In this document: one piece after another, positions 42,462-62,545 of the stretch
Position numbering within the stretch: the first letter of the stretch is position 1
Layout of the letters: the number at the start of each line of letters is the position of its first letter
NCBI GenBank assembly: GCA_002897655.1
Contig: BDTJ01000038.1
Span: forward strand, 1,957-65,956
Length of the DNA stretch: 64,000 bases
Origin: an archaeon BMS3Abin17
Lineage (GTDB): Archaea; Nanobdellota; Nanobdellia; Pacearchaeales; GW2011-AR1
Direction: 5' to 3'
Notes under the pieces: generated by a model
The model's input: the letters and a program-made list of their open reading frames with translations, nothing else
Databases searched by the model: none
What the model was told of the DNA's origin: nothing
Program-made: the position numbers and the translations under genes

Positions 42462-43157
42462 ATGAAGATAAAAGACATTCCAAAAGATGGCAGACCAAGA
42501 GAAAGATTCCTAAAACATGGTCCTGAAACCCTAAGTGATGCAGAACTTTTTGCAATTATTCTTAGAACAGGGACAAGAGGAAAATTAAACAAAGAGAGGG
42601 AACTAATGCCCGGAGAAAACGTGGTTGATATGTCAAACAGATTAATCAAAGAATATGGTTTAGATAAATTATTTGATTGTTCTCTCAAAGAACTCCAGAA
42701 AATTAAAGGCATTGGACCTGCAAAAGCAATGCAGATTTTGTCCATGGCAGAATTAGGTAAAAGATATTCACAATCTAAAAATCCAATAACTAAAATAAAT
42801 GATGCCAAAGATGTTTTTAATTATTTTCATGAAAGACTTAAAGACAAAAAAGAAGAAAATTTCTATATTTTAATGTTAAATACTCAAAATAATATAATTG
42901 GAGAGCAATTAATAAGTAAAGGAATTCTCGATGCTTCAATAATTCACCCAAGAGAAATATTTAAGCCAGCAATTAAAAACAGTGCATCTAAGATAATTTT
43001 AGTGCATAATCATCCATCAGGAGACCCGAATCCCAGTGCAGAAGATGAAGAGATTGCAAAAAGGTTAATGAAAAATGGAGAAGAGCTAGGAATAAAGGTT
43101 TTGGACAATGTAATAATTGGAAATGAAAAGTTTTGGAGTTCGGTTGAGAAAGATTAA
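42462..43157 (+). CDS. radC: RadC-like JAB/MPN domain protein
   Basis: N-terminal HhH region and the JAMM motif HNHPSGDPNPSAED. Confidence 0.8.
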   Translation: MKIKDIPKDGRPRERFLKHGPETLSDAELFAIILRTGTRGKLNKERELMPGENVVDMSNRLIKEYGLDKLFDCSLKELQKIKGIGPAKAMQILSMAELGKRYSQSKNPITKINDAKDVFNYFHERLKDKKEENFYILMLNTQNNIIGEQLISKGILDASIIHPREIFKPAIKNSASKIILVHNHPSGDPNPSAEDEEIAKRLMKNGEELGIKVLDNVIIGNEKFWSSVEKD

Positions 43158-44958: not shown

Positions 44959-45318
44959 TCATTTGTCTTTTAAAGATATTCTAAAATCCCTTTCTTTTTT
45001 AATCAGGTCCAGGATTTCACTATCAAGTTCCTTCTTTCTGACTGCAGGAGCAAGTTTAAAATAATTTAAAGATGAAAATTTATCATATAAGCCTTTATTT
45101 TTAATGAGATTTACAAAGTTTTCTTTATCTTCAGGGTAAATAATCTTTTCATACTCCTTTACTGAACATTTTTTATTTGTTCCAAAAAGAATATCAGTAT
45201 TTTTTTCTTTAGCTAATTCAATAATTTTTATTTTAATTTCCTTCTCTTTCAGTTCTATTTCACTTTTTAATTTTTGAATTCTTTCAAATTCATCAACTAA
45301 ACCATCATCATTTGCCAT
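44959..45318 (-). CDS. Stand-alone homologue of the C-terminal domain of the Cas4-like nuclease at 60395-61576
   Basis: KKCSVKEYEKIIYPEDKENFVNLIKNKGLYDKF...ERDFRISLKDK aligns with KKASVREFDRIVMPEGEDKAKFLQLLKDKGVYEEC...EKDYRISLSRRK. Confidence 0.45.
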   Translation of the reverse strand: MANDDGLVDEFERIQKLKSEIELKEKEIKIKIIELAKEKNTDILFGTNKKCSVKEYEKIIYPEDKENFVNLIKNKGLYDKFSSLNYFKLAPAVRKKELDSEILDLIKKERDFRISLKDK

Positions 45319-45916
45319 TTTTTATATCCTGTATTTTAATCTCAAGTTCTTTTTCTTCACCAAAATCATATGTAAATCTAAAAGAATCCTTTTTATTCAG
45401 TCCTCCTGCTTCAAGAACAAAACCTATTTTATAATCATCAAGTCCGTCGAATCTTTCCTGCCATTCATCGCAAAGAGTTCCAAAAACATATTTTCCAATA
45501 TGGAATTCATATAAATGCCCAGGATCTAAATCAAATTCCTGTTCTATTCTTTCAAATAAATCTCTCAATGTCTTATTTCCATTGATTTCTATTTCTGAAT
45601 TGTCTTTCTTCCCAGAGATTTTAAATATAAAGGTTTTATCCATCCCAGCCCATTTAAAGTTCTTTAATTCTAATCTCTTCTTTTCATGTTCAATTAGGTT
45701 TGTAATCCTGTCAAAATCTGCTTCTTCAAACATGCTTATTTCTTTTGCTTTAGATAAACCTTCTTTGAGGTCTTTAATAAGAAGTTTTGTAAACCTCTCT
45801 TTAGTCAGTTTTTCCATTTCAGATAGTTTTTCCAGCATTGATTTTTTAGTTTGTTTTGATTGTTGAGCTGGCATTTTATTTTTTGGCTTCACTTGTGAAT
45901 TTTTTATTTTTATCAT
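45308..45916 (-). CDS. Hypothetical protein, partner of the 119-aa ORF
   Basis: 202 aa; overlaps the downstream ORF by 11 nt. Confidence 0.35.
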   Translation of the reverse strand: MIKIKNSQVKPKNKMPAQQSKQTKKSMLEKLSEMEKLTKERFTKLLIKDLKEGLSKAKEISMFEEADFDRITNLIEHEKKRLELKNFKWAGMDKTFIFKISGKKDNSEIEINGNKTLRDLFERIEQEFDLDPGHLYEFHIGKYVFGTLCDEWQERFDGLDDYKIGFVLEAGGLNKKDSFRFTYDFGEEKELEIKIQDIKNGK

Positions 45917-45934: not shown

Positions 45935-46367
45935 TTATCTTTTATCAACCCAGGCTTTAGAATAACCTTTTTTCTCATAAATTTCTTTCATTCTTTCCGG
46001 TGCAAGTTCAGGATTTTCAATTTCATCGACTCTTTCGCTTCCTACTTTTGCCAACCATAGTTTAAATGGCTCTGCTTTCCTTGAAGGAATTGATTGGATT
46101 ATTCTGAATATTGTTTCCACAATCTGTTAGATAATATTTTCCATCAGAAGATTTAAATTTTAGTTGTCCGATTTTTGCGGACAACTCAGAACCTTCTTGT
46201 TTAAGTTTTACTTTCAAATCAGACCAGTATTTTCTAGGACGAGCACTTTCAGTCAAAATCGCAACAATATCTATAATAGAATAAAACCATGCTCCTTCAT
46301 TCAATGTTTTGGGGTACACTGAGCAGTGCTTATTATCTATCCAAATCCTTCTTATTTTCAAAAACAA
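45935..46367 (-). pseudogene. Bro-N/DinD-like (antirepressor-family) gene split by a frameshift
   Basis: Two overlapping ORFs (46062-46367 and 45935-46120). Together they give a Bro-N-like sequence: ...SIPSRKAEPFKLWLAKVGSERVDEI. Confidence 0.4.
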
Positions 46368-49373: not shown

Positions 49374-50828
49374 TTAATCTTTAAGGTCACTTTGAATTTC
49401 TTTTAATTGTTCTAAGGCAGATTCTAATTCTTCTGTTAATTCATCTGCAATAATATCAGGATCAGGAAGTTTGTCTAAATCATCTAAACTTTCATCTTTT
49501 AACCAGAAAATATCTAGATTAGTCTTATCTCTCTTTAGTATCTCTTCGTAACTAAAACATTTAAATCGTTCAGACTCTTTTCTTTTATGTCTATTGTTAG
49601 GATTATAGCATTTTACAAAATCATCTAAATCTTCTTCTTTTAAGGTATTTTCTTTTAATGTAAAATGTTTATTTGTTCTTAAGTCATAAATCCATATTTT
49701 AGAAGTTTGGGATTGTTTTGAAGCTTCTCTTTTATCAAAAAATAAGACATTCGCTTTAACACCCTGAGCATAAAATATTCCTGTTGGTAATCTCAATATT
49801 GTGTGTAAATCACAAGTTTCCATTAATTTCTTCCTTATTATTTCTCCTGCTCCACCTTCAAATAGAACATTATCTGGAAGAACGATTGCTGCCCTCCCAT
49901 TTATCTTTAATATGCTTTTTACGTGTTGTAAAAAGTTTAATTGTTTATTACTTGTTTCTGTCCAAAAGTCATCTCTTACAACTGTTAAGGTCTGTTTAGA
50001 TGTTTCTCCTTCTTCTGTTACAATTGTCTCAGAAGATTTTTTTCCAAAAGGAGGATTTGTCAGAACTATATCATAAACTGCCCCTGGATTTTTCTTCAAG
50101 GAATCCTCAAGGCTTATTGGGCTTTGTTCTCCATTGATCCCATGTAGATATAAATTCATTACACAAAGTCTTGCAACCATTGGGACAATATCATTTCCAC
50201 TAAATGTCTTGTGTTTTAATTTTATATTTTGGTCTCTGTCTAATTCATAATTTTTAACAATATGATTATATGCAGAAAGTAAAAATCCTCCTGTTCCAGA
50301 AGCAGGATCATGAATTTTTATTCCTGGTTCTGGTTTTATAACTTTAACAATTGAGTTAATTAAGGGTCTTGGTGTGAAATATTGCCCTGCTCCGCCCTTA
50401 ACATCTGCCGCATTTTTTTCTAAAAGCCCTTCATAAGCATCACCTTTAACATCTGCATCTAAGTTCAACCAATTTTCTTTGTTTATTAAATCAACAATTA
50501 ATTTTCTTAATTTCGCAGGATCTTGTATTCTATTTTGAGATTTTCTGAATATAACCCCTATAATTCCAGATTCTTTTCCCAATTCATTTAATAATTTAAT
50601 ATAATGTCTTTCTAGTTCTGGACCTTCTTTGTCTAAAAGAGATTGCCAATTATATTTCTTAGGAATATCGCTTTTTTTACTGTAAGGAGGCTTTGTTCTC
50701 TCATCATCCATTTTCAAAAACAGCAGATATGTCAGTTGTTCAACGTAATCCCCATAAGAAAGACCGTCATCTCTAAGTACATTACAATAATTCCATAATT
50801 TACTTACTAATTGTTGTGATGTTGTCAT
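49374..50828 (-). CDS. hsdM: Type I restriction-modification methyltransferase subunit
   Basis: HsdM N-terminal region, an AdoMet pocket and the motif NPPFG (LTNPPFGKKS). Confidence 0.9.
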   Translation of the reverse strand: MTTSQQLVSKLWNYCNVLRDDGLSYGDYVEQLTYLLFLKMDDERTKPPYSKKSDIPKKYNWQSLLDKEGPELERHYIKLLNELGKESGIIGVIFRKSQNRIQDPAKLRKLIVDLINKENWLNLDADVKGDAYEGLLEKNAADVKGGAGQYFTPRPLINSIVKVIKPEPGIKIHDPASGTGGFLLSAYNHIVKNYELDRDQNIKLKHKTFSGNDIVPMVARLCVMNLYLHGINGEQSPISLEDSLKKNPGAVYDIVLTNPPFGKKSSETIVTEEGETSKQTLTVVRDDFWTETSNKQLNFLQHVKSILKINGRAAIVLPDNVLFEGGAGEIIRKKLMETCDLHTILRLPTGIFYAQGVKANVLFFDKREASKQSQTSKIWIYDLRTNKHFTLKENTLKEEDLDDFVKCYNPNNRHKRKESERFKCFSYEEILKRDKTNLDIFWLKDESLDDLDKLPDPDIIADELTEELESALEQLKEIQSDLKD

Positions 50829-51055
50829 TTTTTTAGATAATTTATAACTTTATTATATCTTACTATTTGTAAAATGTCAAAGAAGATTACTCCTATTAAA
50901 ACAATCCATGTTACATAAGCTAATTTTAATTTAAATGTTAAATCTTCAATAGTGTAATACCCAATTGAAGTTGATAAAGTAACTGCTAAAAGAGTAAACA
51001 ACCAAGTCCTCGCGTTTTCATATTTTACCTTTAATAATTCATATTCTCTATCCAT
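50825..51055 (-). CDS. Small two-TM protein embedded between hsdS and hsdM
   Basis: 76 aa; its ends overlap both neighbours. Confidence 0.35.
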   Translation of the reverse strand: MDREYELLKVKYENARTWLFTLLAVTLSTSIGYYTIEDLTFKLKLAYVTWIVLIGVIFFDILQIVRYNKVINYLKK

Positions 51056-52205
51056 TTTTCACCAACTTTCCTTCAAAAGCAACTTTCAGGATTGATTTTC
51101 TGAGCATCTCTGCCTTTTTCAAAGAGTTATCAACAACTTCTTCAACTTTGTCTATAACTGAAAATTTTGATTCTATATTGGAGACTATTTTTTCCCAATC
51201 TTCTTTATCTGGAAGAGTCACAATAAAAGAGTTAAGGGTATTTTTGGATATTGCTTTAAAAGTAGTGCCAGTCCCTTTACTATCTAATCTTTGCCCATAA
51301 TAATTTATTAAATAGAAAAGTAAAAGAGATTCAGTTTCATTTTTAGCTTTTATTGCCGCAATTCCTCTACCAATAGCACATTTTTCAGGAGAAATATTAC
51401 AAGGACCAATTGGAGCTCTTATTGATACTAACAAGTCCCCTTTATCTGCTTCTTTGTTATACTTCTCAGTCCAAATTTCTATATTTGGAAATTTATAATT
51501 AAATTCTTTTTTTCCTTGAAAAAAAGCTAAACCTTTTTTTTCTTTATTATAATATTCAGATTTTGGTGATTGCCCCATAATTATTTCAAATGCTTTTCCA
51601 AGTTCTGTTTCTTTTCCATTCTCAAAAGCCTTTTTCAAGACAGCTTTTTTGTAAAGTTCTATTTTTTGTTTGACTGTTTTTAGTGATTTGATTGCTTCGT
51701 CAAGTCGTGTGAATTGAGTTTCTATGGCAGAGACGATTTTTTGTCTATCTTCAAATTTTTCTGGATAATATATTACATATTCTTTTAAAGTATTCGGAGA
51801 AATATTTGGTTGTGCCCCCCCATACGCTTCTTTGAGAATTTGTTGGCTTTTTGTTTGTAGAAAATAATAAATATAATCTTCTGATTTTTTATCTTTAGAT
51901 CTTATTAGCGCAATCCTTTGATTTAATAAAGCTGGTTTACTTTCCTTATAAATCCCAATTTTTCCAGTAGTTGCACCAGATAAGGCAATTAAAATATCAT
52001 CTTTTTTCAACACAGAATTTTTTATTTTCTCATTTAATTCCTTATCATAATAATGTTGATTTTTTTCTAAAATCATAACTTCTTGACCATTAGTTATATT
52101 TGAAATTCTAATTATTGGGATTCCTTGTTTTGCAAATTCTGAACTTTTGAAAGCAAACCCTGATTTTACTTTTGCTACTTCGTTAAGTTTTTTTGTTTGT
52201 CGCAT
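51048..52205 (-). CDS. hsdS: Type I R-M specificity subunit
   Basis: Two target-recognition-domain halves separated by conserved central and C-terminal coiled regions; 385 aa. Confidence 0.8.
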   Translation of the reverse strand: MRQTKKLNEVAKVKSGFAFKSSEFAKQGIPIIRISNITNGQEVMILEKNQHYYDKELNEKIKNSVLKKDDILIALSGATTGKIGIYKESKPALLNQRIALIRSKDKKSEDYIYYFLQTKSQQILKEAYGGAQPNISPNTLKEYVIYYPEKFEDRQKIVSAIETQFTRLDEAIKSLKTVKQKIELYKKAVLKKAFENGKETELGKAFEIIMGQSPKSEYYNKEKKGLAFFQGKKEFNYKFPNIEIWTEKYNKEADKGDLLVSIRAPIGPCNISPEKCAIGRGIAAIKAKNETESLLLFYLINYYGQRLDSKGTGTTFKAISKNTLNSFIVTLPDKEDWEKIVSNIESKFSVIDKVEEVVDNSLKKAEMLRKSILKVAFEGKLVKNG

Positions 52206-54456: not shown

Positions 54457-54680
54457 TTTGTTTTCTCTCCTTTTTCAAAGGGGTTAAGAGTTATTTTTTC
54501 TAAAAGTTCAATTTTTGCATTTTTATTTGAATTCTCATTTTCTAAAAATCTTATCCTAGGTTTAATATCTTTTTTTAAATCTGAAACCTGTTTTAAAACC
54601 CACCCCAAAAAAATCAAAATTAAAGTTATAAATATCCCTAGAATCCATTCCCAACTTAAACTAATTGTTGAAGTTCCCAT
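54453..54680 (-). CDS. Small single-TM protein
   Basis: 75 aa; shares its boundary with the hsdR stop. Confidence 0.3.
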   Translation of the reverse strand: MGTSTISLSWEWILGIFITLILIFLGWVLKQVSDLKKDIKPRIRFLENENSNKNAKIELLEKITLNPFEKGEKTK

Positions 54681-57451
54681 TACCCCCCAACCCCCAAATT
54701 TATTCCCCTAATCATCTTTCCAAACTTTTCCTGTCCTTCAAAGACCTTCACGGCTTTGCCTAATCCTCCCATTTGCTGAAGTGAACCATATTCAAAATCA
54801 TCTGCTTCAATTTCTGCTGTTGTTGCAATATGTTGTTTTATTTTTCCTAACCAGGTTAGTTGCTCTTTTGTGAATTCTACTCCTTGTTCTTTTTGTGTTG
54901 CAAGCCATTCTTTAAATCTCTTTTCAATTGTATCGAGATATGGCTCAAGCTCTTTTGTTTTTTCTATCTCATGCCTGAGGAGAGATATAAAATCTGCTAT
55001 TCTCTCAGATTTTGATTGGCCTTTAACCTTCCCTTCTTCTAAATTTTTGTAAGCATTCCAAAGTCTTGAAGTGGTTAGCCCATAAGAGGGGGATTTAATT
55101 GTCTCTGAAAGACTTTTAAGATCTTTCCATTTAATCTTTCCTTTATGTTTATATAATATCTGAATTGCATCTAATTCGTCTTTATTTTTCTTGATAAATT
55201 CTCTAAAAGAACCTACAACCTCTTTTGCTTTTTCTTTAGCAATTTCAGAAAATCCTGCATACTCAACTTCATCAAGAGTAACATCATCAAGAATTATCTC
55301 TGTTTCTCTTTTAATTTCAGGAAGTCTTTCTAAAAGTTTTGGATTCTTAGTAAAGTCTAGGGAAGCATTTTTGATTCTTTTTCTTGTAAATTCTTCAATT
55401 TGTGTTTTTGTTGGTTCATAGCCAAATTCTTTTTGAGCTTCTTCTAATATTTTATCTCCATCAACTGCCAATACTAGTTCCTTAGAAAAATCACTTAGTT
55501 TTTTACCTGAAATATTCTGGATTTCTTTATTTTGCTTTTCTGTTAATCTTTTTTCTAATCTAGAAAGTCTTGAAGCCATAGAAGAAAGATGCTCTTTCTT
55601 TAACTTGCCTTTTCCATATTGAAATAATTTTATTAACTTTTCAAAAGAAATCTTTTTACCTAACTGTTCTAATGGAGAAGTCTCATTTAAATCTTTATTG
55701 TCTAAAACCCCCACTGCATCAACAATAACAAATCTTTCTTTAACTGCATTAGGTGTAACTTGTCTAAAATCTTCTGCTTTCATAACTCTAACCCCCCTAC
55801 CTTTCATTTGTTCAAATAATAACCTGCTTTTAACAGCCCTCATAAAAAATACTATCTCCAAAGGTTTAATATCAGTTCCTGTCGCAATCATATCCACAGT
55901 AACAGCAATCCGAATTTTAGGAGATGTTCTAAAATCCTTAATCAGTTGTTTTGGACTTATACCCTCTGTTTTATAAGTTATTTTAACTGCAAAATCATTC
56001 CCTTCTCCAAAAACCTCTCTGACAATTTCCAAGATATCCTCTGCATGGTCGTCACTTTTTGCAAAAATTAAGGTTTTAGGAACCCAATCTCTATTAGGAA
56101 AAATACTTGGCAACATTTTATCTTTAAATGTTTTTATTATTGTCCTAATTTGGTCTTTTGATACAACTCTTCTATCAAGTTCCTCTGCATTATATTGAAC
56201 TTCATCCTCAAGTTTTTCCCATCTTTTTTGTCTTGTTCTTTTGTCTCTTTTAATAATCGTCTCTCCTTTTGGAATAATATTTCCTGTTTTTGTAACTTTT
56301 GTTCTAATATCATAAACATCAAAATCAACATTTACATTATCTGCAACAGCTTCCTCATGCCCATACTCCATAACGAGATTTTTATTAAAAAAACCAATAG
56401 TGCCTTTAGAAGGTGTAGCTGTTAAACCAATTAAAAAAGCATCAAAATATTCTAAAACCTGCCTCCATAATTTATAAATGGATCTATGGCACTCATCAAC
56501 AATAATTACATCAAATGTTTCTATTGGGATCTTAGGGTTATATTCTAATTTTTCATACTCTCCAGATAAAGCATCTATAAACTTTTCATCATCCTCTTGT
56601 TCCCCTGTTAATTTTTCTCCTTTAATTATAGAATACATTCTTTGAATCGTGGAAATACAAACCCTTGTAGAGTCACTTATTTTGTTTCCTTTCAACAATT
56701 GAAGATTGTGCAAATCAGTAAATTTCCTCCCATCTCCAGGAACTTCAAAATTCTCAAATTCTTGTTCTGTTTGTTCCCCTAAATTAGACCTGTCCACTAA
56801 AAATAAAATTCTATGAGCATTGCCATTTTTAATTAAATCCTCACAAATATTAACTGCAGTAAAAGTTTTTCCAGAGCCTGTTGCCATCTGAATTAATGCT
56901 TTTGGATTTCCATTAGCCAAAGACTCCTTAATGTTTTTTATAGCTTTAATTTGAACAGGCCAAAGGTTTTTATTTTTATATTCTTTGTTTAAAGAAAGAT
57001 TATACCTTAAATTTCCTTTTTTTCCTTTTTTAATCCAATCCTCCAGAGTTTCAGGTTTATGAAAAGCGAAAACCTCTCTGCTTCTTGGCTTTGCATCCCA
57101 CTTATTAGTGAATCTAATTTCAGAGCCAGAGGATTCATAAAGAAAAGGCAATTCTCCTTCGAGTTTCTCAAAATCCTCTGGAAATCCTTCAGAATATTTT
57201 GCAGTTTGAGGCTCTTTACCCATTAATGACTCCCCTTCTTTTTTAGCCTCAATTACTCCTACTGCTTTTCCATTTACAAATAAAACATAATCTGCCTGGT
57301 CTTTACCCATTTGGAAGTATTCAACAGCAACTCCTTTTGAGCTATGAACATTGGCAATTTTATAGTTTTGAATATTCCACCCAACAGCATCTAATTGGGG
57401 GTTAATCTTCTCATGCCTTGCTTTATCTTCTGGTCTTAATGAGTGTGTCAT
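54680..57451 (-). CDS. hsdR: Type I R-M restriction subunit
   Basis: Walker A QMATGSGKT, DECH box (IIVDECHRS) and helicase C; 923 aa. Confidence 0.9.
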   Translation of the reverse strand: MTHSLRPEDKARHEKINPQLDAVGWNIQNYKIANVHSSKGVAVEYFQMGKDQADYVLFVNGKAVGVIEAKKEGESLMGKEPQTAKYSEGFPEDFEKLEGELPFLYESSGSEIRFTNKWDAKPRSREVFAFHKPETLEDWIKKGKKGNLRYNLSLNKEYKNKNLWPVQIKAIKNIKESLANGNPKALIQMATGSGKTFTAVNICEDLIKNGNAHRILFLVDRSNLGEQTEQEFENFEVPGDGRKFTDLHNLQLLKGNKISDSTRVCISTIQRMYSIIKGEKLTGEQEDDEKFIDALSGEYEKLEYNPKIPIETFDVIIVDECHRSIYKLWRQVLEYFDAFLIGLTATPSKGTIGFFNKNLVMEYGHEEAVADNVNVDFDVYDIRTKVTKTGNIIPKGETIIKRDKRTRQKRWEKLEDEVQYNAEELDRRVVSKDQIRTIIKTFKDKMLPSIFPNRDWVPKTLIFAKSDDHAEDILEIVREVFGEGNDFAVKITYKTEGISPKQLIKDFRTSPKIRIAVTVDMIATGTDIKPLEIVFFMRAVKSRLLFEQMKGRGVRVMKAEDFRQVTPNAVKERFVIVDAVGVLDNKDLNETSPLEQLGKKISFEKLIKLFQYGKGKLKKEHLSSMASRLSRLEKRLTEKQNKEIQNISGKKLSDFSKELVLAVDGDKILEEAQKEFGYEPTKTQIEEFTRKRIKNASLDFTKNPKLLERLPEIKRETEIILDDVTLDEVEYAGFSEIAKEKAKEVVGSFREFIKKNKDELDAIQILYKHKGKIKWKDLKSLSETIKSPSYGLTTSRLWNAYKNLEEGKVKGQSKSERIADFISLLRHEIEKTKELEPYLDTIEKRFKEWLATQKEQGVEFTKEQLTWLGKIKQHIATTAEIEADDFEYGSLQQMGGLGKAVKVFEGQEKFGKMIRGINLGVGG

Positions 57452-57485
57452 ATTTACCTAAGAAACCTCTTGATTTTAAGTTTAT

Positions 57486-59189
57486 CTATTCAAATCTTCT
57501 CATAAATTTATTAATTTCTTCTGCAATTCTCTTTCTTCTGAACTCTAAAAATTTCTTATAATTATTTATCTCCCAATCCTCTTTTTCTAGAGAAATAAGT
57601 TGCGAAGCGAGTGTATCTTTGCCCCTTTTTTCAATAATCTCTTTAAGATATATTTTTGGCTCCTTTTTTGCTATTTGACGGTTTGTTTTCCCCCCTATAA
57701 ATGCAAGATTAGATATTTCATTTACTTCTTTTTTCTCAAATCCCGCCTTTTTTAGTAGAGATTTGGGAAATATGTGGTGATATTGTAATGAATGAGCTCT
57801 TCCAATATGCCTTTCTGATAGAGAAAGGCCAGTCCACCAGTCTTTTGCTTCATTTTGTTTAAGAACAAAATATAACATTGAAAAAAATGGACTTCTTATC
57901 CCCTTTTCAAATATGTCCTTTTCACCCACTTCAAACTTTTTAACATGTGTTTGTAATTGGTTAAGCAAATTATCTACACTATTCCCTCTAAAAATAATAG
58001 ATATATCTAAATCTAGGATTGATTCAGAAGAACCCATCCCATAATGACCCCTCATATGTGCTAAATAAAACCACCTTAATAATCTTTTTTCATCTTCTCC
58101 AGATAATTTTTCATTATTATTCATTGCATAAATTGCTATCGGGATTAATAAAAAAGGGGAGGAGATATTGGAAAGATTATCTACTCCAGCATTGCTTCTT
58201 AGGAAATTCACAGCAAATCTTAGACCATTCTTTGCAAGTTCCCATGACTCCTCTAATTTTTTCTTTTTTATTTTCCCCACAGTCTTGAATTTACTTTGTT
58301 GGGTAGCAAATACTACAAGAGTTCTTACAGGTAACCCGGATTCAAGAATATAATCTTCATCTTCTTTGAATTCTTTAGCAAATTCCTCAATTTGATCCAT
58401 AAAACCTTTCCATTTAGAAGTAATTTGAGCAAGTGCTAAATCAGAACCTCTCAACTTTATCCCTAAAGAATTAACTCTAACAAATATCTCTGTTACTTCT
58501 TCATAAGATTTATTTTTATCTAAAACTTGCATACCATATGTATAATCTGCTATTTTCTTTAAATTTTGTAATCGTGCAGAATATTTGTCCCATTTTTCGT
58601 CATCAGAATTTATCCCAATCGATTTTAAAATTTGACTTTCAGATTTCTTAAAAACATCTGAAACTGGTATCCATAAAGGATTATTTTTTAAGGTTTTACT
58701 TGATACAACAAAAATTTTCTTTTTTAGTTCTTCCCATATATCTCTTTCAGAAGAATCTCCATTTTCTAAATTCTCAGAACTTTCTTGGCCATCATTTTCA
58801 TCAACTTCAGTCACTTCAACAGGGGGGCCTTCTGGATGTTCTAGATTGAATAAGATCTCGATAGGCCTTTTCCTTTTTCTAACATGAACTGGTTCTCCCG
58901 ATATAATTGCAGATAAAGAAGTGATTCTTTGCTGACCATCTAAAAGAAGCCATTTTTGTGAGGTTGTTGGAGGTTTAGTAGACTTTATTGCTAAATCTCT
59001 TTCTTGAATATCTTCATCTGTTTCCCAGACTAATATAGTCCCTGAAGGATATTTTCTATACAAAGAATCTAATAGGTCTCTTACCCTTGTTCCAGGCCAG
59101 ATATACTTTCTTTGCATTTCAGGCAATTTTAATTCTTTTCTCAATACTTTATCTACTAATTCTCTTACCGAAATATATGTTTCAACCAT
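57486..59189 (-). CDS. GmrSD-like DUF262/DUF1524 type IV restriction-like enzyme
   Basis: N-terminal DUF262 motif LLLDGQQRITSL. C-terminal His-Me finger (HHIFPKS...N). Confidence 0.8.
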   Translation of the reverse strand: MVETYISVRELVDKVLRKELKLPEMQRKYIWPGTRVRDLLDSLYRKYPSGTILVWETDEDIQERDLAIKSTKPPTTSQKWLLLDGQQRITSLSAIISGEPVHVRKRKRPIEILFNLEHPEGPPVEVTEVDENDGQESSENLENGDSSERDIWEELKKKIFVVSSKTLKNNPLWIPVSDVFKKSESQILKSIGINSDDEKWDKYSARLQNLKKIADYTYGMQVLDKNKSYEEVTEIFVRVNSLGIKLRGSDLALAQITSKWKGFMDQIEEFAKEFKEDEDYILESGLPVRTLVVFATQQSKFKTVGKIKKKKLEESWELAKNGLRFAVNFLRSNAGVDNLSNISSPFLLIPIAIYAMNNNEKLSGEDEKRLLRWFYLAHMRGHYGMGSSESILDLDISIIFRGNSVDNLLNQLQTHVKKFEVGEKDIFEKGIRSPFFSMLYFVLKQNEAKDWWTGLSLSERHIGRAHSLQYHHIFPKSLLKKAGFEKKEVNEISNLAFIGGKTNRQIAKKEPKIYLKEIIEKRGKDTLASQLISLEKEDWEINNYKKFLEFRRKRIAEEINKFMRRFE

Positions 59190-59227
59190 ATTATTTCCTA
59201 TAATTCTCCATTTTTAATCATTTCCAT

Positions 59228-59356
59228 TCACTCCTCCCCAACATCCCCTCTCTTACTCAAAGATATCCTGTGATCTTTTTCAATGTTTGCCCTATCCTTT
59301 TCCGGCATTGCATCAAGCATTCTTTTTCTGTTCTTGGGTGCCTGCAATCCAGTCAT
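59228..59356 (-). pseudogene. 42-aa ORF that duplicates the Cas4-like C-terminal tail
   Basis: My own translation: MTGLQAPKNRKRMLDAMPEKDRANIEKDHRISLSKRGDVGEE, compared with the Cas4-like end ...KDKVNIEKDYRISLSRRKDLEEE. ATGA overlap with the Fic stop. Confidence 0.4.
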
Positions 59357-60300
59357 TTTTTCTTTTTTTCAAGCTTCTCCTGAAATTTTTTGTATTCTTT
59401 TATATACAATTTTATTGTTGGTTTTAAATTTTTATTTAGTTCATATTCTTTTAATGTTCTGTAATATTCCTGGCTATTTTTAAAATCAATATTAACCGGG
59501 GGGAGGTTATGTTTAATTAAGATATTATTTAATAAGATTCTTCCAACCCTTCCATTTCCATCTGCAAATGGATGGACATTCTCAAATTGGTTGTGTATTA
59601 CAGCACCAAGAATTAATGCAGGATATTTCTCTTTATTTTTGTTATACCAATTTATTAATTCTTTTAATAAGTAATTAATTCTGGTCTGTGGCGCCCCTTC
59701 ATGAACCACTTGCCCAAGATTATTTGTGACAACAACTTCTTCTCCTTTTTTTCTTAAGCTTCCTGCAAAGGATTTAGAATTTTTAAAAACAATTTTATGG
59801 ATTTTTTTAATTAAATTAATTGAAATATGCTCTTTGGCCTGCCTGATAAATCTTATTGCTTCATCTACTCCATAAGCTTCTGCAATATCTTCTTTTGATT
59901 TGTCCAGCCATTTGTCTTTTTCTAAAATATCCTTAACTTCTTTCTGGCTTAATTTGCTTCCTTCTATAGCATTAGTATTATAGGTAAAAATTTTAGAGAA
60001 TATTTTCCAGTCTTTTTCAGATAAATGGAATATCTTTAAGGGAATCTCTGCCTCTAATTTTTTTATTTCCTTAATCTCCTGTTTAGTCAATTCAAAATCT
60101 AAAGGGTCTTTTATGACTTTATATTTGTGTATTTCTTCAAGGATTAGTTTTTCTGCAATTTCTCTCCTTTCTTTTAATTTTCTGTTGCTTAAATCAGTTC
60201 CAAGATACTTTCTGAATTTATGAACTTTTAATCCCTCCCTATAAGAATGAGCTAAATAATATTTTGTTTTCTTTCCCTGCTTTCTTTTTTCAATATGCAT
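59353..60300 (-). CDS. Fic/Doc-family protein
   Basis: Fic motif HPFADGNGRVGR. Confidence 0.8.
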   Translation of the reverse strand: MHIEKRKQGKKTKYYLAHSYREGLKVHKFRKYLGTDLSNRKLKERREIAEKLILEEIHKYKVIKDPLDFELTKQEIKEIKKLEAEIPLKIFHLSEKDWKIFSKIFTYNTNAIEGSKLSQKEVKDILEKDKWLDKSKEDIAEAYGVDEAIRFIRQAKEHISINLIKKIHKIVFKNSKSFAGSLRKKGEEVVVTNNLGQVVHEGAPQTRINYLLKELINWYNKNKEKYPALILGAVIHNQFENVHPFADGNGRVGRILLNNILIKHNLPPVNIDFKNSQEYYRTLKEYELNKNLKPTIKLYIKEYKKFQEKLEKKKK

Positions 60301-60394
60301 AATAATATATGGGTGTCTACATATTTAAATCTTTTGTTCTCAGGTGTCTACATTTTAAGTAATTTGTAGTCACCTCTCTTGTGGTGCGAGTTTC

Positions 60395-61576
60395 TCACTC
60401 CTCCTCCAAATCCTTCCTTCTACTCAATGATATCCTGTAATCTTTTTCAATGTTTACTTTATCCTTGATTTCTTGCTCAATTTCATCCTTGAGGACCTTG
60501 CTGTTAAGCTTTGGATAGCAGAGCATAGAGCATTCTTCATACACCCCTTTATCTTTTAATAACTGCAGGAACTTTGCCTTATCTTCTCCTTCAGGCATGA
60601 CAATCCTGTCAAACTCCCTGACAGAGGCTTTCTTATTGCTTCCATACGCCACATCTATCTCAAACTGCTTTGCATATCTTATCAGGTTATCCTTAAATTC
60701 TTCTTCTGCTGTTTTTAATTCTGAAAGCTTTGTCTTTATCTCAGAATACTTATCAACCAACTTAACACCTTCATCTTCCTTGAACTGTTCAACAACTTCA
60801 ATCTTTTCCAATTCTGCCTGATGCTTGAATGAGGGGCATTCTCCCCTGAACCCGCAATAATCACATAAAGCAGTAACATTTGTAGGAAACTCTGTCGCAG
60901 ATTCAATCTCTCTTATCCTCTCAATAACTTCATCCTGCAGTTTTTCCACCTGTTTATCTGTTCTTTCAGAGACAGCATCTTTATTAAAAGCCAGCATATG
61001 CCAGATTAACTTTACTGACTTTGCATCTTTGAATTTATCCTTAACCCAGATAGAATACATTGCCAGCTGCCTGTCTTCATCTGCTTCATTCTGGTCTTTC
61101 ATTCTTGAATTTGTCTTGTAATCACAAACATAATAATTTCCCTTGCTGTCACAACCCAGCTTATCTATCCTCACATGCCACTGATTCCCGTCTTTCAGGG
61201 TCATCCTGTCCTGAGTCTCTAATCCCAGTATTGTCATATCCTCAAAAGGCTTCATCCTGTCATAATAATCTGTCAGGAACTTTTCACCCATCTTCCTGTA
61301 ATTCTCAGCATCAAGGCCTTTCTTAACAATTAAAATATCATAAGAATAATTCTTCTTCCACAAATCCCTGTAGAACTTAACAAGGCTCTCCTTTGCAACC
61401 CTTTGCCTGAATTTCTTTCTTTTATACAGGTCTTCCAGAGCCTGATGCACCATGTCCCCCATAAATGCCTCAATAGTAGTGGGAGTTTCTGGCTTCTTCT
61501 TATCAATATAACGCAGTTTATACTGATATGGGCAATTTTCAAAAGTCGTAACTCTCGAATGCGAGTATGTTGCCAT
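60395..61576 (-). CDS. Stand-alone Cas4-like PD-(D/E)xK nuclease (DUF83-like) with a C-terminal extension
   Basis: N-terminal Cys (FENCPYQYKLRY), a D...VCDYKT motif, QLAMY and a C-terminal CDYCGFRGECP cluster. No cas genes or CRISPR array nearby. Confidence 0.6.
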   Translation of the reverse strand: MATYSHSRVTTFENCPYQYKLRYIDKKKPETPTTIEAFMGDMVHQALEDLYKRKKFRQRVAKESLVKFYRDLWKKNYSYDILIVKKGLDAENYRKMGEKFLTDYYDRMKPFEDMTILGLETQDRMTLKDGNQWHVRIDKLGCDSKGNYYVCDYKTNSRMKDQNEADEDRQLAMYSIWVKDKFKDAKSVKLIWHMLAFNKDAVSERTDKQVEKLQDEVIERIREIESATEFPTNVTALCDYCGFRGECPSFKHQAELEKIEVVEQFKEDEGVKLVDKYSEIKTKLSELKTAEEEFKDNLIRYAKQFEIDVAYGSNKKASVREFDRIVMPEGEDKAKFLQLLKDKGVYEECSMLCYPKLNSKVLKDEIEQEIKDKVNIEKDYRISLSRRKDLEEE

Positions 61577-61609
61577 AAAATTAGATATATTAGGGGGTTT
61601 TAAGGTTTT
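61577..61609. promoter_or_regulatory. Shared promoter/leader module, copy 1
   Basis: AAAATTAGATATATTA... directly 5' of the Cas4-like ATG (minus strand). Confidence 0.5.
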
Positions 61610-61662
61610 TTATGTTGGTTTATTCACACAAAACCTGATATCTAAAGCTATTAGGAAGAATT

Positions 61663-61950
61663 TTAATAAACATTCTTTCTATATCCAATTCTAAGGACAA
61701 TTATTTTTCTCCCTGAGACAATTATGTCTAGAATTGCCCTGTATTTTAAGACTCTTAATCTCCAAAGCTTAGAGCCTTTTAATTTCTTTAAATGTGGAAA
61801 AGGATTTTCTCTTATAGAATATAATTTTTTTAATATCATATCTGCATCTTTTTTCTGAATTTTTTTAAGAAATCTTTCAGCAATCTCCTCAATTTGGAGT
61901 GAATGCATTTTAATGCAAGGATACTCCAAGTTCCTTTGCAACTTGTTCAA
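61663..61950 (-). CDS. RelE/ParE-family toxin
   Basis: LWRLRVLKYRAILDIIVSGRKIIVLRIGYRKNVY. Confidence 0.6.
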   Translation of the reverse strand: MNKLQRNLEYPCIKMHSLQIEEIAERFLKKIQKKDADMILKKLYSIRENPFPHLKKLKGSKLWRLRVLKYRAILDIIVSGRKIIVLRIGYRKNVY

Positions 61951-62146
61951 TTGATTTTATTTTTCCTTTCTTGACATTTTCTAGTGCTATTTTAATGTCG
62001 TCAATTTCTTCTGGAGTTAACTCGTCCTCTTCGACTTCGTCCAATACATTGTTTAAAACCTCGTCATAAGATTCTCTTTCATATCTTTTCATTGTTCTAA
62101 GCCGATTAAGAGTTTCTTGGCTTATTTGCACAGTTGTTTTTTCCAT
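61910..62146 (-). CDS. Cognate antitoxin
   Basis: 78 aa; overlaps the toxin start. Confidence 0.45.
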   Translation of the reverse strand: MEKTTVQISQETLNRLRTMKRYERESYDEVLNNVLDEVEEDELTPEEIDDIKIALENVKKGKIKSIEQVAKELGVSLH

Positions 62147-62350
62147 GTTATATAGTAACTATAATTACTATATAAATGTTCTGTTTTTGGGATTATCTGG
62201 AGTTTTGAGAAAATTTATATACTCTTTTGCTCTTTATATTTAAGGCAGTAATGCGCTTTGGCGTTTCATCTTTTGGGATGAGACAAATGAGAGTAAGGTT
62301 CTTTGAACCCTGGCCACTGTCTATTTTTTTATTATTTTGACCAACTCTTC

Positions 62351-62545
62351 TTATTTCTCTTTTTTTCTGCTTGTAGATTCTATTTTCAATTGCAGGGCAT
62401 TAAACAAATGCACAATTTGGTCCTTTAATTTTTGCGGGACATTAATTCCATAGATAATTTTTTTATTTTTAATTAATGCAACAGAGTAATCTTTTTCAAA
62501 AATCTCGCTTCCAGATTTATCAATCCGAAATAAAGTAATTGCCAT
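62351..62545 (-). CDS. Small hypothetical protein
   Basis: 64 aa, preceded by promoter module copy 2. Confidence 0.3.
   Translation of the reverse strand: MAITLFRIDKSGSEIFEKDYSVALIKNKKIIYGINVPQKLKDQIVHLFNALQLKIESTSRKKEK

Follow-up and report, generated by a model that had tools for sequence, protein, structure and literature searches.

A 72-nt direct repeat brackets a Fic gene in the archaeon BMS3Abin17 (contig BDTJ01000038.1), where it corresponds to the 3′ end of the adjacent PD-(D/E)XK nuclease gene. We analysed a 64-kb stretch of this contig (hereafter the window; GC content ~31%) and consider the repeat to be, more probably than not, a recombination scar, formed as an incoming PD-(D/E)XK–Fic segment, homologous to the resident locus on one side, was joined illegitimately within the resident 3′ end. 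All genes within 43–63 kb lie on the minus strand, and in order of transcription they comprise a ParE/antitoxin pair, the PD-(D/E)XK nuclease, Fic, a 42-aa open reading frame (ORF), a GmrSD-like gene, HsdR, several small genes, HsdS and HsdM. Gene identities were taken from Pfam, PADLOC and NCBIfam models, and the nuclease and Fic proteins match BMS3Abin17 records at 100% identity.

Two copies of a nuclease tail flank the Fic gene

The copies of the repeat (59228–59299 and 60395–60466; minus strand, as are all features below unless noted) align without gaps over 72 nt, agree at 59 of 72 positions (82%) and have a spacing of 1,167 nt; this is by far the longest repeat in 57000–62400. An initial annotation of the region had reported direct repeats of about 80% identity at 59229–59298 and 60396–60456, within 1–10 nt of these coordinates, and had placed the second at the 3′ end of what it called a Cas4-like gene. 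We agree: repeat search, family alignment and a model of the C-terminal domain (CTD) identify this copy, termed resident, as the last 23 codons and stop of an intact, 393-aa PD-(D/E)XK (RecB/Cas4-superfamily) nuclease gene (60395–61576). Both copies are in frame and each terminates at a TGA. The nuclease ends with ...KDKVNIEKDYRISLSRRKDLEEE, encoded by the resident copy, and the 42-aa ORF (59228–59356) with ...KDRANIEKDHRISLSKRGDVGEE, encoded by the other copy, termed orphan. The sequences beyond the two stops do not align, similarity ending exactly at the stop codon, and the match once claimed for the 3′ untranslated region is therefore absent.

The repeated piece is the native conserved C terminus of the PD-(D/E)XK nuclease family. 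All 118 of 118 full-length homologues share this terminus (KDFRLSLSKRKDVEEE-like, consensus (V/I)xKDFR(L/I)SLSKRKDVEEE), and the 72 nt encode the final β-strand and acidic tail of the CTD (CTD model with a predicted local distance difference test score, pLDDT, of 92). A nucleotide profile made from the last 195 aligned positions of related alleles, with the resident copy left out, matches the orphan at 59297–59229 (E = 9e-10; envelope reaching 59317), and a protein profile does the same (E = 2.6e-5). Because the nucleotide profile comes from the alleles of other genomes, the homology is real and not a Lys/Glu-rich coincidence; the initial annotation had likewise argued that the similarity is not confined to a low-complexity tail. 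Upstream of ~59317, neither the protein nor the nucleotide profile found homology of the orphan to the nuclease, a weak 'PK...L' likeness being visible only by eye. Between the Fic stop and the detectable nuclease-tail homology lies a junction filler of ~50 nt (59300–59352), untraceable in origin, for which neither the window nor the fetched loci gave a significant match.

The orphan has the character of an allele. It differs from the resident copy at 13 of 69 coding positions, giving seven amino acid changes, six of which lead to residues common in working alleles; a conserved aromatic residue is His in the orphan. Against a family profile built without the resident protein, the orphan scores 32.8 bits, and 2,000 random 13-substitution mutants of the resident tail, generated under a uniform mutation model, score 17.1 ± 6.2 bits, with 0.4% reaching 32.8. 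The orphan sequence SLSKRGDVGEE is the exact tail of other alleles (for example, P0008). The L121 allele has a run of 24 nt, TCTTTGAGTAAGAGAGGGGATGTT, in exactly the form found in the orphan; at 8 of these 24 positions the resident copy has another base. Repeat, profiles and substitution pattern all point to 23 codons plus stop of another PD-(D/E)XK allele, that is, to a displaced allele remnant and not a fresh target duplication.

A probable by-product of the junction: the 42-aa ORF

The 42-aa ORF is laid out as first described, with its ATG overlapping the Fic stop as ATGA and its end formed by the tail copy; the filler lies between. Conservation of the ORF, which the initial annotation had proposed checking, was not borne out: it has no family match and no conserved homologue, its N-terminal 19 residues match nothing, and analogous chimeric ORFs elsewhere carry different N-terminal parts. 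Its start is explained by the terminal AAA-TGA of Fic, which makes an ATG, and the ATGA overlap follows Fic regardless of the next gene. The ORF is thus a by-product, a chimeric scar and not a conserved gene. We also considered whether its first codons (ATGACT) are a relic of hsdM, and rejected this as unproven, given that ATGA comes from the end of Fic itself and only one or two further bases would be informative.

Could the ORF nevertheless be a real small gene, translationally coupled to Fic through the ATGA, whose peptide competes with or mimics the nuclease tail? The overlap and a frame open to the native stop would suit such a role, and open remnants occur elsewhere (a 40-aa ORF overlapping the upstream stop in L087 and an in-frame HNH–tail fusion in L050). 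We find this scarcely credible. Apart from the missing homologue, the unmatched N terminus and the ATGA that Fic supplies whatever follows, the conserved aromatic has become His, no two loci agree in the length of the remnant or in the N-terminal part, and open frames of 20–50 codons are unremarkable. The 23 residues correspond to the last strand of a 130-aa fold, which, as modelled, would be unable to fold alone.

The nuclease family and its C-terminal domain

PF12705 (PDDEXK_1) matches nuclease residues 4–248 (E = 1e-28). The protein combines an N-terminal nuclease domain, which has a Cys cluster, with the uncharacterized ~130-aa CTD. We found 1,592 homologues, the best 120 of which are 70–87% identical and belong almost entirely to metagenome-assembled genomes (MAGs) of Nanoarchaeota, Woesearchaeota and Pacearchaeota. 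Mean pairwise amino acid identity over 90 distinct alleles is 0.73, and the tail is less conserved than the rest of the gene (0.59 versus 0.73). 'Cas4-like' holds only at the level of the superfamily. Cas4 itself we reject as an identity, the nuclease scoring 31 bits with TIGR00372 (cutoff 65), its neighbours being restriction–modification (R–M) genes and no CRISPR-type tandem array being found within the window, the last as the initial annotation had noted.

The CTD also occurs as stand-alone proteins, common in the representative library; no relative of its fold was found among solved structures. One stand-alone paralogue (44959–45318, 119 aa, E = 2e-32) lies in the window, where it closes the same co-oriented island. 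It is preceded by a PRiA4_ORF3/MM3350-like gene and a split, pseudogenized Bro-N gene, and these neighbours occupy 45308–45916 and 45935–46367. In L094, a similar stand-alone CTD gene sits immediately upstream of the nuclease gene.

These stand-alone copies bear on an alternative origin, in which tandem copies of the nuclease gene, or of a stand-alone CTD, diverged in situ while functional and the downstream one was almost wholly deleted or overwritten as Fic landed between them. Allele-like divergence needs two once-functional copies, not different genomes; most of the sampled alleles resemble the orphan less than the resident tail does; and the paralogues in the window and in L094 provide candidates. 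We nonetheless judge this origin unlikely. A second copy is seldom found close to the nuclease, 100 loci yielding 102 cluster members, and the orphan tail resembles the full-length family, not the stand-alone one, whose members end ...RDFRISLKDK. Two events would be needed, since the gene would first have to be duplicated and one copy then removed almost entirely, with the deletion stopping just at the end of Fic, and the recurrence of orphan tails with different cargos (see below) would be left unexplained.

Several nuclease alleles (L008, L017/L108 and P0073; 68–75% identical to archaeal ones) are filed as 'bacterium' or Patescibacteria MAGs, reflecting either binning error or inter-domain island transfer between DPANN archaea and the candidate phyla radiation (CPR). 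In L017/L108, orthologues of HsdM (88%) and HsdR (75%) are present in inverted orientation.

Fic is carried by a portable module

The Fic gene (59353–60300, 315 aa) is matched by PF02661 (E = 3e-18) and by the PADLOC models PDC-S04 (E = 1e-35) and SoFic (E = 2e-33). With the NCBIfam SoFic equivalog it scores 52 bits against a cutoff of 550, and it is therefore a family member, not the equivalog. Its translation contains the Fic core motif HxFx(D/E)GNGRxxR as HPFADGNGRVGR, and a motif of the N-terminal inhibitory-helix type, TNAIEG, which is class II-like. These features place it in the Fic/DOC AMPylase family as a putative SoFic-like defence gene. Among 3,087 Fic homologues the best 120 are 75–91% identical; a scan of viral contigs with Fic gave no relative.

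A predicted promoter and operator occupy 60301–60374, in an arrangement common to the contexts described below. Reading towards the gene, there is a half-site GGTGACTACA (60374–60365), 12 nt, a first copy of TGTAGACACC (60352–60343), 13 nt, the archaeal TATA-like TTTAAATA (60329–60322), a second TGTAGACACC (60321–60312), 11 nt and the ATG. The operator-like motif is found nowhere else in the 64-kb window, and the factor binding this putative operator could be the N-terminal region of Fic itself. Sigma-70-type promoter and terminator scans stayed at background level, these models not being applicable to an archaeon.

Gene and promoter make up a module of ~1.0 kb that occurs, with identical promoter layout and unrelated sequence to its left, in seven contexts. 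In L009, where homology spans window positions 60374 to 59364, Fic is divergent from the nuclease gene. The module lies between hsdS and hsdM in L122/123 and in L131/132, adjoins hsdR with hsdM fragments after Fic in L124/125, and sits between unrelated genes in L127/128. L126 has the order nuclease, 204-aa gene, Fic, hsdM 5′ remnant. In L129/130 the nuclease stop codon directly abuts the module and there is no orphan; in the window, a spacer of 20 nt (60375–60394) runs from the nuclease stop to the left end of the module. Taken across these contexts, the comparison identifies Fic as an inserted portable module with its own promoter and sharp, reproducible ends. The initial annotation had seen Fic as an inserted cassette that duplicated the 3′ end of its target; the seven contexts bear out insertion, whereas the 13 differences in 69 positions and the run shared with L121 speak against duplication.

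Window and L130 are 61% identical in the nuclease and 84% identical in Fic, a discordance that suggests nuclease–Fic adjacency arose more than once. In this lineage, Fic is usually embedded in type I R–M operons, between hsdS and hsdM. This argues against a stand-alone defence annotation here, and so against the earlier view of Fic as a single-gene system. In L122, L124, L126 and L131, the sequence after Fic is hsdM or 5′ fragments of that gene. The fragments are frameshifted or truncated (L124, 5945–6400; L126, 5939–6200; for example, the 31-aa ORF MTSSNQLVNKLWNYCNILRDDGLSYRDYVEN). They represent another type of scar left by recombination in the islands, and they suggest that the ancestral position of Fic was hsdS–Fic–hsdM.

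The nuclease anchors a hypervariable island

We fetched 118 loci with nuclease relatives. The nuclease is usually the first gene of a co-oriented array: 88% of 78 immediate downstream neighbours are co-oriented with it, and 29 of 69 co-oriented ORFs overlap its stop codon. Methylase and restriction families dominate at this position, with Pfam matches to N6_N4_Mtase (9/78), N6_Mtase (7/78), HsdM_N (5/78), Eco57I (4/78), GmrSD_N (4/78) and C-5 methylase (2/78). Clustering of the flanking ORFs gave no conserved synteny on either side of the nuclease, and the flanks have almost no gene families in common. The largest flanking families after the nuclease, mostly downstream, are HsdM (20 loci), type III Mod-like methylases (19), HsdS (13) and HsdR (8); upstream neighbours include helix-turn-helix regulators, CARF proteins, Fic (3 loci), Schlafen-like proteins and transposases. 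These neighbours bear out the composite defence hotspot suggested at the outset. Since both flanks are variable, the anchor looks like part of the island and not like a housekeeping landmark. Gene content across the loci therefore marks the nuclease gene as the conserved anchor of what we describe as a hypervariable restriction/defence island.

Many metagenomic contigs stop inside or just past the nuclease (L007, L014, L028, L033–L035, L071, L098, L109, L113, L117 and L118), which fits assembly breaks from strain-level variation beside a conserved gene.

Orphan tails recur with other cargos

A search of six-frame translations of the fetched loci with a CTD profile located orphan tails downstream of intact genes in only ~4 of 79 loci with enough downstream sequence. 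L050 has two. The first is a ~16-aa remnant, ...KDFRISLSKRRGGEE, fused in frame to an HNH-like ORF; the second is a 51-aa remnant behind an intact Bro-N homologue and a small membrane ORF, the Bro-N gene thus lying between two orphan tails. In L087 the remnant follows a 133-aa ORF and an MNT nucleotidyltransferase, and in L100 a 169-aa unknown gene. Remnants in these loci and the window range from ~16 to 51 aa, and the repeats differ in extent (72, ~34–50, ~122–160 and 48 nt) and in 5′ boundary. Cargo begins after a 20-nt spacer in the window, directly in L129/130 and with an overlap in L050 and L100. A scan of the L050, L087 and L100 cargos gave no recombinase domain. L103, a candidate fifth orphan, is better read as the frameshifted end of an intact gene and was excluded.

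A CTD search of 1.8 billion representative proteins gave many chimeric small ORFs, in which an unrelated N-terminal part is joined to a nuclease remnant at a variable cut (for example, P0369, P0334, P0387, P0290 and P0291). In the 215-aa P0260, the N-terminal half of an NAD-dependent epimerase/dehydratase (Epimerase profile positions 1–124 of 240) continues in frame into the final ~70 nuclease residues. The junction falls at a shared VYG(S), ...SSSVYG|SNKK, an apparent microhomology.

The initial annotation had compared the arrangement to the work of an integrative element. In such a scheme, site-specific or integron-like, a recombinase would insert the Fic module, or a circle of Fic and a tail copy, at an att site in the nuclease 3′ end. 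The tail–cassette–tail–cassette–tail layout of L050 resembles this outcome; cargo lies at or very near the stop, which those 29 of 69 downstream ORFs overlap; the Fic module has sharp, reproducible ends; and nuclease–Fic adjacency apparently arose more than once (61% versus 84%). The details of the repeats speak otherwise. Their lengths and 5′ boundaries differ from locus to locus, the two copies in the window are 18% diverged, and similarity stops at the stop codon, spanning no core. Synonymous-site conservation in the tail equals that of the whole gene (0.59 versus 0.59), and so gives no sign of a conserved DNA recombination site. As the initial annotation had itself remarked, no integrase is present: we found no integrase-like or recombinase domain among ORFs scanned in 54–63 kb, the 1.17-kb interval holds only Fic (59300–60394), and the other small inserts carry no recombinase either. 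Orphans occur in few of the loci, and the Fic module is also placed where no nuclease tail exists. We regard site-specific integration as quite unlikely.

A bolder form of this idea makes the nuclease stop codon a dedicated DPANN capture site for defence cassettes, integron-like yet without a known integrase. Cassettes would enter precisely after the stop and be driven by the nuclease promoter, the reaction would leave orphan tails behind as by-products, and the nuclease and its CTD would perhaps take part in it. The grounds for it are cargos 0–20 nt from the stop in independent alleles, the sharp ends of Fic, the array-like L050 and the repeated nuclease–Fic adjacency. Both the dedicated site and precise entry after the stop seem very unlikely to us.

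A proposed origin for the repeat

The reading we prefer, a scar of recombination anchored on one side by the nuclease gene, can be set out in steps. The ancestor would have had the nuclease gene directly followed by the GmrSD and type I R–M genes. Donor DNA from a related archaeon, carrying the same nuclease gene and then the portable Fic module, would have paired with the resident nuclease gene and undergone homologous recombination on that side. Its non-homologous far end would have been joined illegitimately within the last ~25–40 codons of the resident gene, with ~50 nt of filler. Such a process would amount to homology-facilitated illegitimate recombination, or sequential displacement. 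Its product would be an intact nuclease with the incoming tail, Fic and its promoter, the last 23 codons of the resident allele as an orphan, and the old downstream genes. We infer the direction of the event (which copy was resident), the one-sided homologous crossover and the end-joining step from the arrangement of the sequences.

Displacement would explain why the orphan resembles an allele and is preceded by ~50 nt of filler, why breakpoints vary elsewhere, why L050 has an array and why no recombinase is found. Similarity would break exactly at the stops because each copy keeps its own downstream context. A conserved nuclease with hypervariable flanks is the substrate that homology-anchored recombination needs. 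Loci resembling both partners exist. Donor-like arrangements are those of L129/L130, with the nuclease stop abutting Fic and no orphan, and of L126 (nuclease, 204-aa gene, Fic). Recipient-like are L042, L059, L078 and L110, in which a GmrSD-like gene immediately follows the nuclease without Fic, and L104, in which an orthologue of HsdR (87%) begins 40 nt past the nuclease stop, after a short leader similar to that of the window and again without Fic.

Several points weigh against this origin. The initial annotation had suggested looking for an empty site; Fic-less nuclease/GmrSD-like junctions are present in the four recipient-like loci, but their GmrSD-like genes are only 21–32% identical to that of the window, so that none is a strict empty site, and no close relative with the window's exact GmrSD next to the nuclease was found. 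Among ~100 sampled alleles, the best match to the whole 72 nt of the orphan is the resident tail itself, at 82%, where inter-allele tail identity has a median of 71% and a 95th percentile of 82%. This leaves room for an origin within the lineage; it also means that donor and recipient were probably related. The mutant simulation, which favours an allelic orphan, assumes uniform mutation. In several loci the cargo starts right at the nuclease stop or no more than ~20 nt from it, which could mean a more precise insertion. No demonstration of homology-facilitated illegitimate recombination is known for DPANN archaea.

L001 (an 83% allele with nuclease, small ORF and DUF262 gene) was tried as an empty site and rejected, its DUF262 gene not being orthologous; its leader similarity of ~80 nt is marginal (E = 1e-4 in a small database).

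Restriction genes and other neighbours in the window

The GmrSD-like gene (57486–59189) is a putative type IV restriction enzyme composed of DUF262 and a weak DUF1524. GmrSD_N matches with E = 7e-29, GmrSD_C reaches 20.3 bits, below its cutoff of 23, and PADLOC HEC-05 matches over the full length (E = 9e-49). The older downstream context begins with this gene. HsdR follows (54680–57451, 923 aa; ResIII, EcoEI_R_C and HSDR_N domains), and the same type I system includes HsdS (51048–52205) and HsdM (49374–50828). The type I operon of L122 is orthologous to that of the window (HsdR 86%, PIN-like protein 84%, HsdM 92%). In L122 and L131, annotated from precomputed Pfam matches (Methylase_S, HsdM_N and N6_Mtase), HsdM is 92–93% identical to that of the window and Fic lies between hsdS and hsdM. 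At exactly this position the window has a 76-aa predicted membrane ORF (50825–51055), which overlaps both hsdS and hsdM and has no family match.

The ParE-like toxin/antitoxin pair (61663–62146) lies directly upstream of the nuclease. Comparable pairs, 34–42% identical, occupy the same position in L021 (7381–7918) and L116 (8822–9359). A RadC/JAB-domain gene is found at 42462–43157 on the plus strand, and such genes occur within a few kb of nuclease, Fic and R–M genes in the window, L043, L120, L124 and L129. Together with PIN-like, Schlafen/AlbA_2 and KAP NTPase genes, this suggests a recurring gene set of DPANN islands.

Implications

The scar is of an ordinary and known kind, in a new setting, and it dates and orients a gene transfer in a lineage not amenable to culture. 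In Nanoarchaeota, Woesearchaeota and Pacearchaeota, the nuclease heads arrays of type I, type III, type IIG and GmrSD restriction genes, toxin–antitoxin pairs and Fic. Because a conserved gene heads such hypervariable arrays, it can serve as a landmark for poorly catalogued archaeal defence genes. The nuclease gene appears to act as a homology anchor by which neighbouring defence genes move between genomes without mobile-element machinery, a simple route of defence-island turnover in reduced genomes. For annotation, small ORFs ending ...RISLSKRKD..EE should be treated as remnants, not as genes. Two findings go beyond the repeat itself: DPANN restriction/defence islands have a conserved nuclease as their anchor, and Fic forms a self-contained module.

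Comparison with known systems

Tyrosine-integrase islands insert at the 3′ ends of tRNA, tmRNA and protein genes, the element bringing a replacement 3′ end and leaving attL/attR direct repeats. The window has the same order of intact gene, insert and displaced partial 3′ copy in direct orientation, with the function of the target preserved. It differs in having no integrase, a one-gene insert of 1.17 kb, repeats with 18% divergence whose match ends precisely at the stop codon, no conserved core, and breakpoints that vary between loci. Integron arrays offer a second parallel, since single-gene cassettes are stacked past a fixed point, are probably transcribed from upstream and, in L050, are each followed by a repeated element. 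Unlike integrons, these loci show no IntI-like recombinase and no attC-like palindrome, and the repeated element is coding sequence of variable length.

The defence-island concept reportedly goes back to Makarova et al. in 2011. As in defence hotspots and islands flanked by core genes, a conserved gene here borders a hypervariable stretch rich in R–M and other defence genes; unlike in those, both flanks of the anchor are variable, and the anchor is a RecB/Cas4-superfamily nuclease with a novel CTD. The placement of Fic between hsdS and hsdM in L122 and L131 agrees with known cases, Fic/Doc-like toxins having been noted in R–M operons (Anantharaman et al. 2013, PMC3710099).

The closest comparison is with secreted toxins. 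Sequential displacement by homology-facilitated illegitimate recombination was proposed for effector–immunity arrays of the Vibrio cholerae type VI secretion system (T6SS), in which remnants of 3′ ends occur alongside orphan arrays (Kirchberger et al. 2017, PMC5361080), and the same model was proposed for Rhs C-terminal displacement (Jackson et al. 2009, as cited in PMC5361080). In those systems the displaced piece is a variable toxin tip with its immunity gene; here it represents the extreme, conserved 3′ end of the anchor, the cargo consists of restriction, defence and toxin–antitoxin genes, the hosts are DPANN archaea, and the mechanism is read from sequence only. What the T6SS and Rhs loci share with the nuclease island is a conserved upstream anchor, an illegitimate non-homologous join made without a recombinase, and older 3′ fragments pushed downstream as orphans, with repeated events building arrays such as that of L050.

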